Assembly: GCA_036930585.1 (NCBI GenBank)
Contig: GCA_036930585.1_3066.1
Origin: a phage
DNA length: 64,000 nucleotides
Reading direction: 5' to 3' (one strand)
The translations under genes and the position numbers were made by a program. This document shows positions 15,428 to 16,231 of this stretch, in pieces; within the stretch, counting starts at the first letter, position 1; each line of letters opens with the position of its first letter. The notes beneath the pieces are model-generated. The model was not told the DNA's origin, ran no database searches, and worked only from the letters and a program-made list of their open reading frames with translations.

Positions 15428-16231
15428 TTATATCATTTGAGTATGTAAGCAATTAATTAAAAATATATACTTCATCAGTTCCATTCTTTTCTTTGGAATG
15501 ATATATGTTAAAGACGTATTTTTTATTAAGATGCTTAACATTATATTTTTAGACCATTCTTTAAGAAGAGTGTTTTCCTTTCCGTGATGCTCTAAAACAT
15601 TCGACAGTCCAAATTTTATTCCTCTGTCATTTAAAGAATCTAAAAGATTTAAAAGGTCTTTTTCTTCTTCTTCTGACCAAAATTTATTATAATCAGCAAC
15701 TGTTATAAGATATGGAGGGTCCACATATACAAAATCGCCGTCTAGAATTTTGACATCTTTAAAATGCAATGAACTAAAGATTATTTTATCACAATTTTGT
15801 TTAAAGTGATTAAAGCGTTTTTCACTATTTTTGTTTATAGTTCTTTTTCCAAACGGAGTAGTAAAATTTCCTTTATCGTTTATACGAATCATATTACTAA
15901 ACCCGTGAAAATGAAGAACATAAAGTAAAAGAGGATCTCTAGTTTTATTATAATCTTCACGTAATTTCAAAAACTCTTCTTTTGATGTTTTTGATAGTTT
16001 ATATTGCTTTATTACTTTTAAAACGTCATCCCATGATACATTAATAAGACGCTTATACATTTCAATAATTGGTTCTTGAATATCATTGGCCAATACAGGA
16101 CCATTGACGTTCAAAGACACTGATAAACCTCCACAAAATAAATCCACGAATCTGTCATATTTTGGAAAATGAGGCTTAAGTTCAGGTAATAATGACTGTT
16201 TATTACCTGTATACGCGATAGCTCCTAGCAT
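15428..16231 (-). CDS. dam: DNA adenine methyltransferase Dam with altered C-terminus (apparent -1 frameshift in a 5-nt homopolymer run)
   Basis: [35 protein letters not shown]...DPPY motif; last 39 aa ([39 protein letters not shown]) replaced relative to the alternative frame, which reads [31 protein letters not shown]-stop. Confidence 0.85.

Follow-up and report, generated by a model that had tools for sequence, protein, structure and literature searches.

A one-base deletion in an adenine run of a T2-type phage dam gene, probably real and probably inactivating

Introduction

Has a T-even phage truly lost one base from a short adenine run near the end of its dam gene, and, if so, can the product still work as a DNA adenine methyltransferase? 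The question is raised by a 64,000 nt stretch of the phage contig GCA_036930585.1_3066.1, referred to here as the window, to which all coordinates apply. The window is a portion of a T4-like (Tequatrovirus) genome. Its closest match in the phage collection reaches only about 97% identity over 22 kb, and the exact genome is therefore absent from that collection. The Dam enzymes of T2 and T4 are among the best-studied DNA methyltransferases. A preliminary description of the window, made from the sequence, had recognised the gene as dam, had placed a one-base lesion in a homopolymer run, and had left sequencing error, real mutation and slippage-prone expression as possible explanations.

The dam gene and its one-base lesion

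The assignment of the gene to dam was borne out by a match to Pfam family PF02086 (E = 3.1e-50, 171.7 bits against a cut-off of 22, residues 7-235) and by a phmmer match to the crystal-structure sequences of T4 Dam (1yfj, E = 1e-152). The product contains the AdoMet-binding motif I (FxGxG; F32-C-G34-G35) and the catalytic motif IV DPPY (D171-P-P-Y174), both made of invariant alignment columns. At the lesion the coding strand reads GAA TGG TCT AAA AAT ATA ATG. Comparison with relatives indicates an ancestral A6 run specifying Lys228-Lys229, and across about 240 aligned nucleotides the change from A6 to A5 is the sole difference between the window and either of the phages U115 and 107. This agrees with the preliminary description, which had given the same run as one base short on the coding strand.

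When one A is added to the run, translation ends at the ancestral stop codon after 259 codons, as had been predicted, and the product is identical to T2 Dam (DMA_BPT2) over its full length. The likeness in the restored frame is not due to chance, since 31 of 31 residues match. From residue 229 onwards the two readings differ, and 39 unrelated residues take the place of 31 native ones. The earlier statement that the last 39 residues are unrelated is thus exact, and the wording that about 40 C-terminal residues are rewritten holds for the new residues and slightly overstates the native loss. The features of the locus, together with the other loci of the window discussed below, are listed in Table 1.

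Table 1. Position of the features of the dam locus and of the other loci discussed in the text (window coordinates).
Feature	Position	Strand	Comment
Primase gene 61	16540-17571	-	Upstream of dam
66 amino acid ORF	16343-16543	+	4 nt overlap with the end of gene 61
Spacer between the 66 amino acid ORF and dam	16232-16342		About 110 nt
Frameshifted dam ORF	15428-16231	-	267 aa plus stop, from the ORF list; residues 1-228 as in T2 Dam
A5 run of the coding strand	15546-15550	-	T5 on the + strand; one A gone from the ancestral A6
Out-of-frame dam tail, codons 229-267	15431-15547	-	51% hydrophobic, versus 26% in the native tail
Ancestral Dam residues 230-259 (YNVKH...EVYIFN)	15456-15545	-	Now misread; core beta-strands 6 and 7
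Ancestral dam stop codon TAA	15453-15455	-	Now out of frame
TGCTTA-N13-TATAAT in the dam-56 spacer	15427-15451	-
New dam stop codon TAA	15428-15430	-	25 nt past the ancestral stop, within TATAAT of the dam-56 spacer
nrdD remnant	41215-42263	-	Anaerobic ribonucleotide reductase
134 amino acid ORF	48638-49042	-	Two ORFs in U115
GrcA/YfiD-like gene	60591-60949	-	Glycyl-radical cofactor

Genes surrounding dam

On the minus strand of the window the gene order is primase gene 61, dam, dCTPase gene 56 and soc. The new dam stop codon lies 35 nt upstream of the start codon of gene 56 (15392), and this gene should be unaffected, since the extended dam ORF ends before its ribosome-binding site and start. 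The new stop falls inside the TATAAT of a TGCTTA-N13-TATAAT sequence in the dam-56 spacer, which we take to resemble a T4 MotA-dependent middle promoter. A sigma-70 promoter scan of this spacer gave nothing above the shuffled expectation; the short spacing of the two elements explains why the sequence was missed by that scan.

Between gene 61 and dam is found an ORF of 66 amino acids on the strand opposite to all its neighbours. It is kept in U115, phage 107 and 215Ecol030PP, and is annotated in these relatives as a putative transmembrane protein. The short spacer which separates this antisense membrane-protein ORF from dam is a variable insertion point, in which U115 and phage 107 carry an additional ORF of 182-186 amino acids overlapping the dam start, while 215Ecol030PP and the window are without it.

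Predicted effect on the Dam protein

The structural role of the Dam tail was judged from AlphaFold models and from the known layout of the class I methyltransferase sheet, in which strand 7 sits between strands 5 and 6. The intact protein of 259 amino acids was modelled with a mean pLDDT of 88 (89 for the terminal block). In the model there are exactly seven core strands (residues 27-30, 46-49, 150-153, 166-170, 206-215, 231-235 and 252-258), with strands 2 and 3 separated by the helical DNA-recognition domain and strand 4 followed directly by the DPPY motif; the predicted sheet is that of a class I methyltransferase. The frameshift sets in two residues ahead of strand 6, and strands 6 and 7 are therefore replaced.

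Three residues of the native tail, Y239, E254 and N259, are invariant in 26-27 homologs with identities to intact Dam down to 46%, and a further three (Y230, T252 and V255) show at least 90% conservation in the same homologs; all are lost in the mutant. The AlphaFold model of the mutant has pLDDT values of 57, 32, 63 and 42 for the successive 10-residue blocks of residues 231-267. Ahead of the shift the mutant protein still has motif I for AdoMet binding, its DNA-recognition domain and the catalytic DPPY; it lacks the complete seven-stranded core with its C-terminal beta6-beta7 hairpin and the three invariant residues. Because these last two core strands and invariant residues are gone, we infer a loss of activity, the enzyme being most likely inactive, misfolded or unstable. 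The product is a member of the family by descent, but probably represents a pseudogene or a defective allele.

Distribution of the A5 allele

The phage collection was queried with 81 nt centred on the A run. None of the 182 matching phage records, among them M22342, the original clone of T2 dam, and the records of four T2 genomes, has A5; every one of them matches at 98.8%, with 82 record bases per 81 query bases. A search of IMG/VR for the exact patterns gave no match for A5 and three for A6. In the metagenome collection A5 was absent and A6 was present in only one contig, which gives this search weak power, and the scan of GTDB bacterial genomes, with neither A5 nor A6 detected, has no power. 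At the protein level the 267 amino acid product comes from one source only in the protein collection, the Logan assembly of the SRR28171614 reads, and the other members listed of the 119-member Dam cluster have 259 amino acids or are fragments. The frameshifted tail occurs in 0 of 1819 homologs. The A5 allele is private to the sequenced phage.

Phage 107 (H29) was considered as a second carrier on account of its span of 921 nt, equal to that of the window, but its missing base is located upstream of dam and its dam gene is intact at 780 nt. Four distant homologs with query coverage of 96-98% were likewise rejected as matches to the new tail, having native-type tails aligned by noise.

Other altered genes in the window

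Further genes of the window differ from those of its relatives. The nrdD gene carries an additional C (CTTATGGCCTGG compared to CTTATGGCTGG in relatives), by which the frame shifts after codon 38 or thereabouts. Only residues 1-179 remain, as residues 180-605 have been deleted together with the beginning of nrdG, the activase gene, of which an ORF of 145 amino acids with a GTG start is left. Neither the deletion junction nor the extra base is present in the top phage records; the lesion is also found in the SRR28171614 contigs.

The GrcA/YfiD-like gene encodes 120 amino acids in U115 and is split in the window by a one-nucleotide deletion (AAAACC to AAACC) at about codon 31. The same N-terminal fragment of 36 amino acids is found in a different T4-like phage (93-96% identical) from the independent sample ERR7569065. 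The whole anaerobic glycyl-radical module, composed of nrdD, nrdG and the GrcA-like gene, appears defective. Two Logan contigs from unrelated samples (ERR7569065 and SRR28171614) both end at position 60743 inside the GrcA-like gene, which suggests a common branch in the assembly graph, perhaps caused by k-mers common with host grcA/pflB or nrdD.

A change in the opposite direction may concern the 134 amino acid ORF of the window, which corresponds to two small membrane proteins in U115 (U115_091 and U115_092), the difference being due to a run of C4 in the window and C5 in U115. Since the window has the longer, fused frame, it may be U115 that holds the disrupted version.

Alternative explanations for the missing base

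The first alternative to a real mutation is that the phage truly has A6 and that the consensus lost one A through sequencing or base-calling. Homopolymers are the classic place for such indel errors, A5 is unique with respect to the 182 relatives, the window carries three frameshifts relative to its relatives, and all read support derives from a single read set, SRR28171614, from which the record was probably made. However, the Logan contigs of this read set, obtained by k-mer/de Bruijn assembly, show 100% identity with the window across 5338, 5129 and 2707 bp (13.2 kb) with zero gaps or mismatches and with the dam site covered, an exactness which noisy reads would not give; had the population contained both A5 and A6, the contig would probably have been interrupted at the dam site. 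As a homopolymer control the window was aligned to two relatives, and runs of at least 5 nt with conserved flanks were compared. Out of about 270 aligned runs, some 260-270 had the same length as in each relative and only 2-4 differed, dam being the only length change among the 6-mers; the other one-nucleotide indels either lie between genes or leave the window identical to one of the two relatives at that point. Also the frameshifts in nrdD and in the GrcA-like gene look biological and have independent support, one from the co-occurring large deletion and the other from its recurrence in a different phage and another sample. On the strength of the exact read-level assembly, the homopolymer control and these other frameshifts, the A5 run is probably a real mutation rather than an assembly artefact. 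Among the explanations offered by the preliminary description it is thus real mutation that is favoured, and sequencing error is retained as a minority possibility which we consider unlikely.

With the mutation taken as real, the protein with the exchanged tail could still be partly or fully active, if its hydrophobic, beta-prone tail were to stand in for beta6 and beta7. AlphaFold places strands in the mutant at residues 233-239 and 253-259, which are the native positions, Foldseek aligned the mutant to T4 Dam structures with TM scores of 0.87-0.90 over 260-263 columns, and the upstream catalytic and DNA-recognition motifs are all intact; some function is conceivable because the shifted frame encodes KYIFLIN, resembling the EVYIFN of the native frame. 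Yet this fold prediction is of low confidence and biased by the alignment of wild-type homologs, the tail reaching pLDDT values of 32-63 where the native terminal strand has 89, and the tail, common to none of the homologs, replaces the three invariant residues, so that we regard retained activity as distinctly improbable. An attenuated rather than abolished Dam could also arise from recoding, either by slippage of tRNA-Lys (-1 or +2) on the A run or by transcriptional slippage. tRNA-Lys is known to be shift-prone on A runs, and from the sequence a shift of +2, in which the tRNA pairs anew with A3-A5 after A1-A3, would give a perfect match and lead back into the native frame; a spontaneous low level of such slippage is possible in principle. 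Against recoding, the zero frame is UCU AAA AAU and the candidate U AAA AAU does not conform to the heptamer X XXY YYZ, no significant RNA structure follows (minimum free energy of -8.7 kcal/mol for the 76 nt downstream of the run, z = -1.43, with 16 of 200 shuffles folding at least as well), an A5 tract is far below the lengths that are known to cause transcriptional slippage, and the out-of-frame arrangement is seen in no relative, in-frame A6 being present in 182 of 182 records. None of the hallmarks of dnaX-type programmed -1 frameshifting (heptamer, downstream structure, conservation) is found at dam. Phase-variable tracts usually have 8 nt or more, and the dam tract, with its 5-6 nt and A6 in all 182 relatives, is therefore not a contingency locus. 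There is no indication of programmed slippage or phase variation at the run, the idea of slippage-prone expression could hardly be maintained, and recoding appears extremely improbable.

Discussion

We consider it likely that the sequenced stock carries a real and private deletion from A6 to A5, which has probably inactivated a T2-type dam and is tolerated because the gene is dispensable. According to this explanation one A would have been lost at codons 228-229, and translation would run out of frame from residue 229 to a stop 25 nt past the normal one. The product would be deprived of beta6 and beta7, with Tyr239, Glu254 and Asn259, and the enzyme would be misfolded, unstable or inactive, leaving the phage DNA without phage-directed GATC adenine methylation. 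As T-even Dam is dispensable such an allele may be tolerated, and we infer that it is neutral. The lesion fits a wider decay of accessory genes in the same genome, and the decay of nrdD, nrdG and the GrcA-like gene alongside dam hints that selection on accessory genes has been relaxed in the lineage or in the stock. From this point of view dam A5 is most likely a loss-of-function allele of an ordinary sort, in a non-essential gene that is well known, and is not new in kind.

Loss of Dam could in principle be advantageous, since nucleases exist which cut only G6mATC-methylated DNA, namely DpnI-like and winged-helix type IV enzymes (PMC11037411). A selected dam-null T-even phage, or a strongly attenuated one rescued by slippage, would escape restriction by such enzymes. 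We judge this adaptive reading to be very unlikely; were it true, the phage would give natural access to what T-even Dam does in vivo, a function which for T4 Dam remains unclear according to a 2025 review (PMC12707154).

The preferred explanation, an ordinary inactivating deletion, has practical consequences. In annotation the gene should be marked as a frameshifted, probably non-functional dam and not as a methyltransferase of 267 amino acids. In studies of restriction or of defence systems, and in modification-aware sequencing, users of the phage should not take GATC methylation for granted. If the deletion is confirmed in the stock, a natural dam-defective T2-like phage is at hand, and its distance of one base from the ancestral allele could be convenient for in vivo tests of T-even Dam. 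Digestion of virion DNA with DpnI and MboI, the assay proposed in the preliminary description, would be a poor choice here, because T-even DNA contains glucosylated hydroxymethylcytosine within GATC, a modification which blocks many type II enzymes.

Comparison with known Dam systems

The closest known system is that of T2. Its Dam of 259 amino acids is identical to the window protein at residues 1-228, and at 259 of 259 residues after restoration of one A, and the gene lies in the same genomic context (gene 61, dam, gene 56, soc). The difference resides in the run, A6 in T2 and A5 in the window, by which 39 unrelated residues stand in place of T2 residues 229-259.

T4 Dam (P04392; structures 1Q0S, 1YFJ, 1YF3 and 1YFL) belongs to the same family and fold as the window Dam. 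After repair, S20P, N26D and D188E are the only differences between the window Dam and the crystallised T4 sequence. Without repair the alignment to the T4 crystal sequence fails after KEWSK at residue 228, beta6 and beta7 not being encoded in frame.

T-even dam mutants were found to be viable in classical work, and the classical T2 and T4 mutants reportedly came from the laboratory of S. Hattman. Truncated Dam proteins are also found in NCBI records of T4 (QZB89676.1 with 62 amino acids and UJD20246.1 with 179 amino acids), which carry lesions other than A5. That T-even phages remain viable when dam is disrupted shows the gene to be dispensable in this group.
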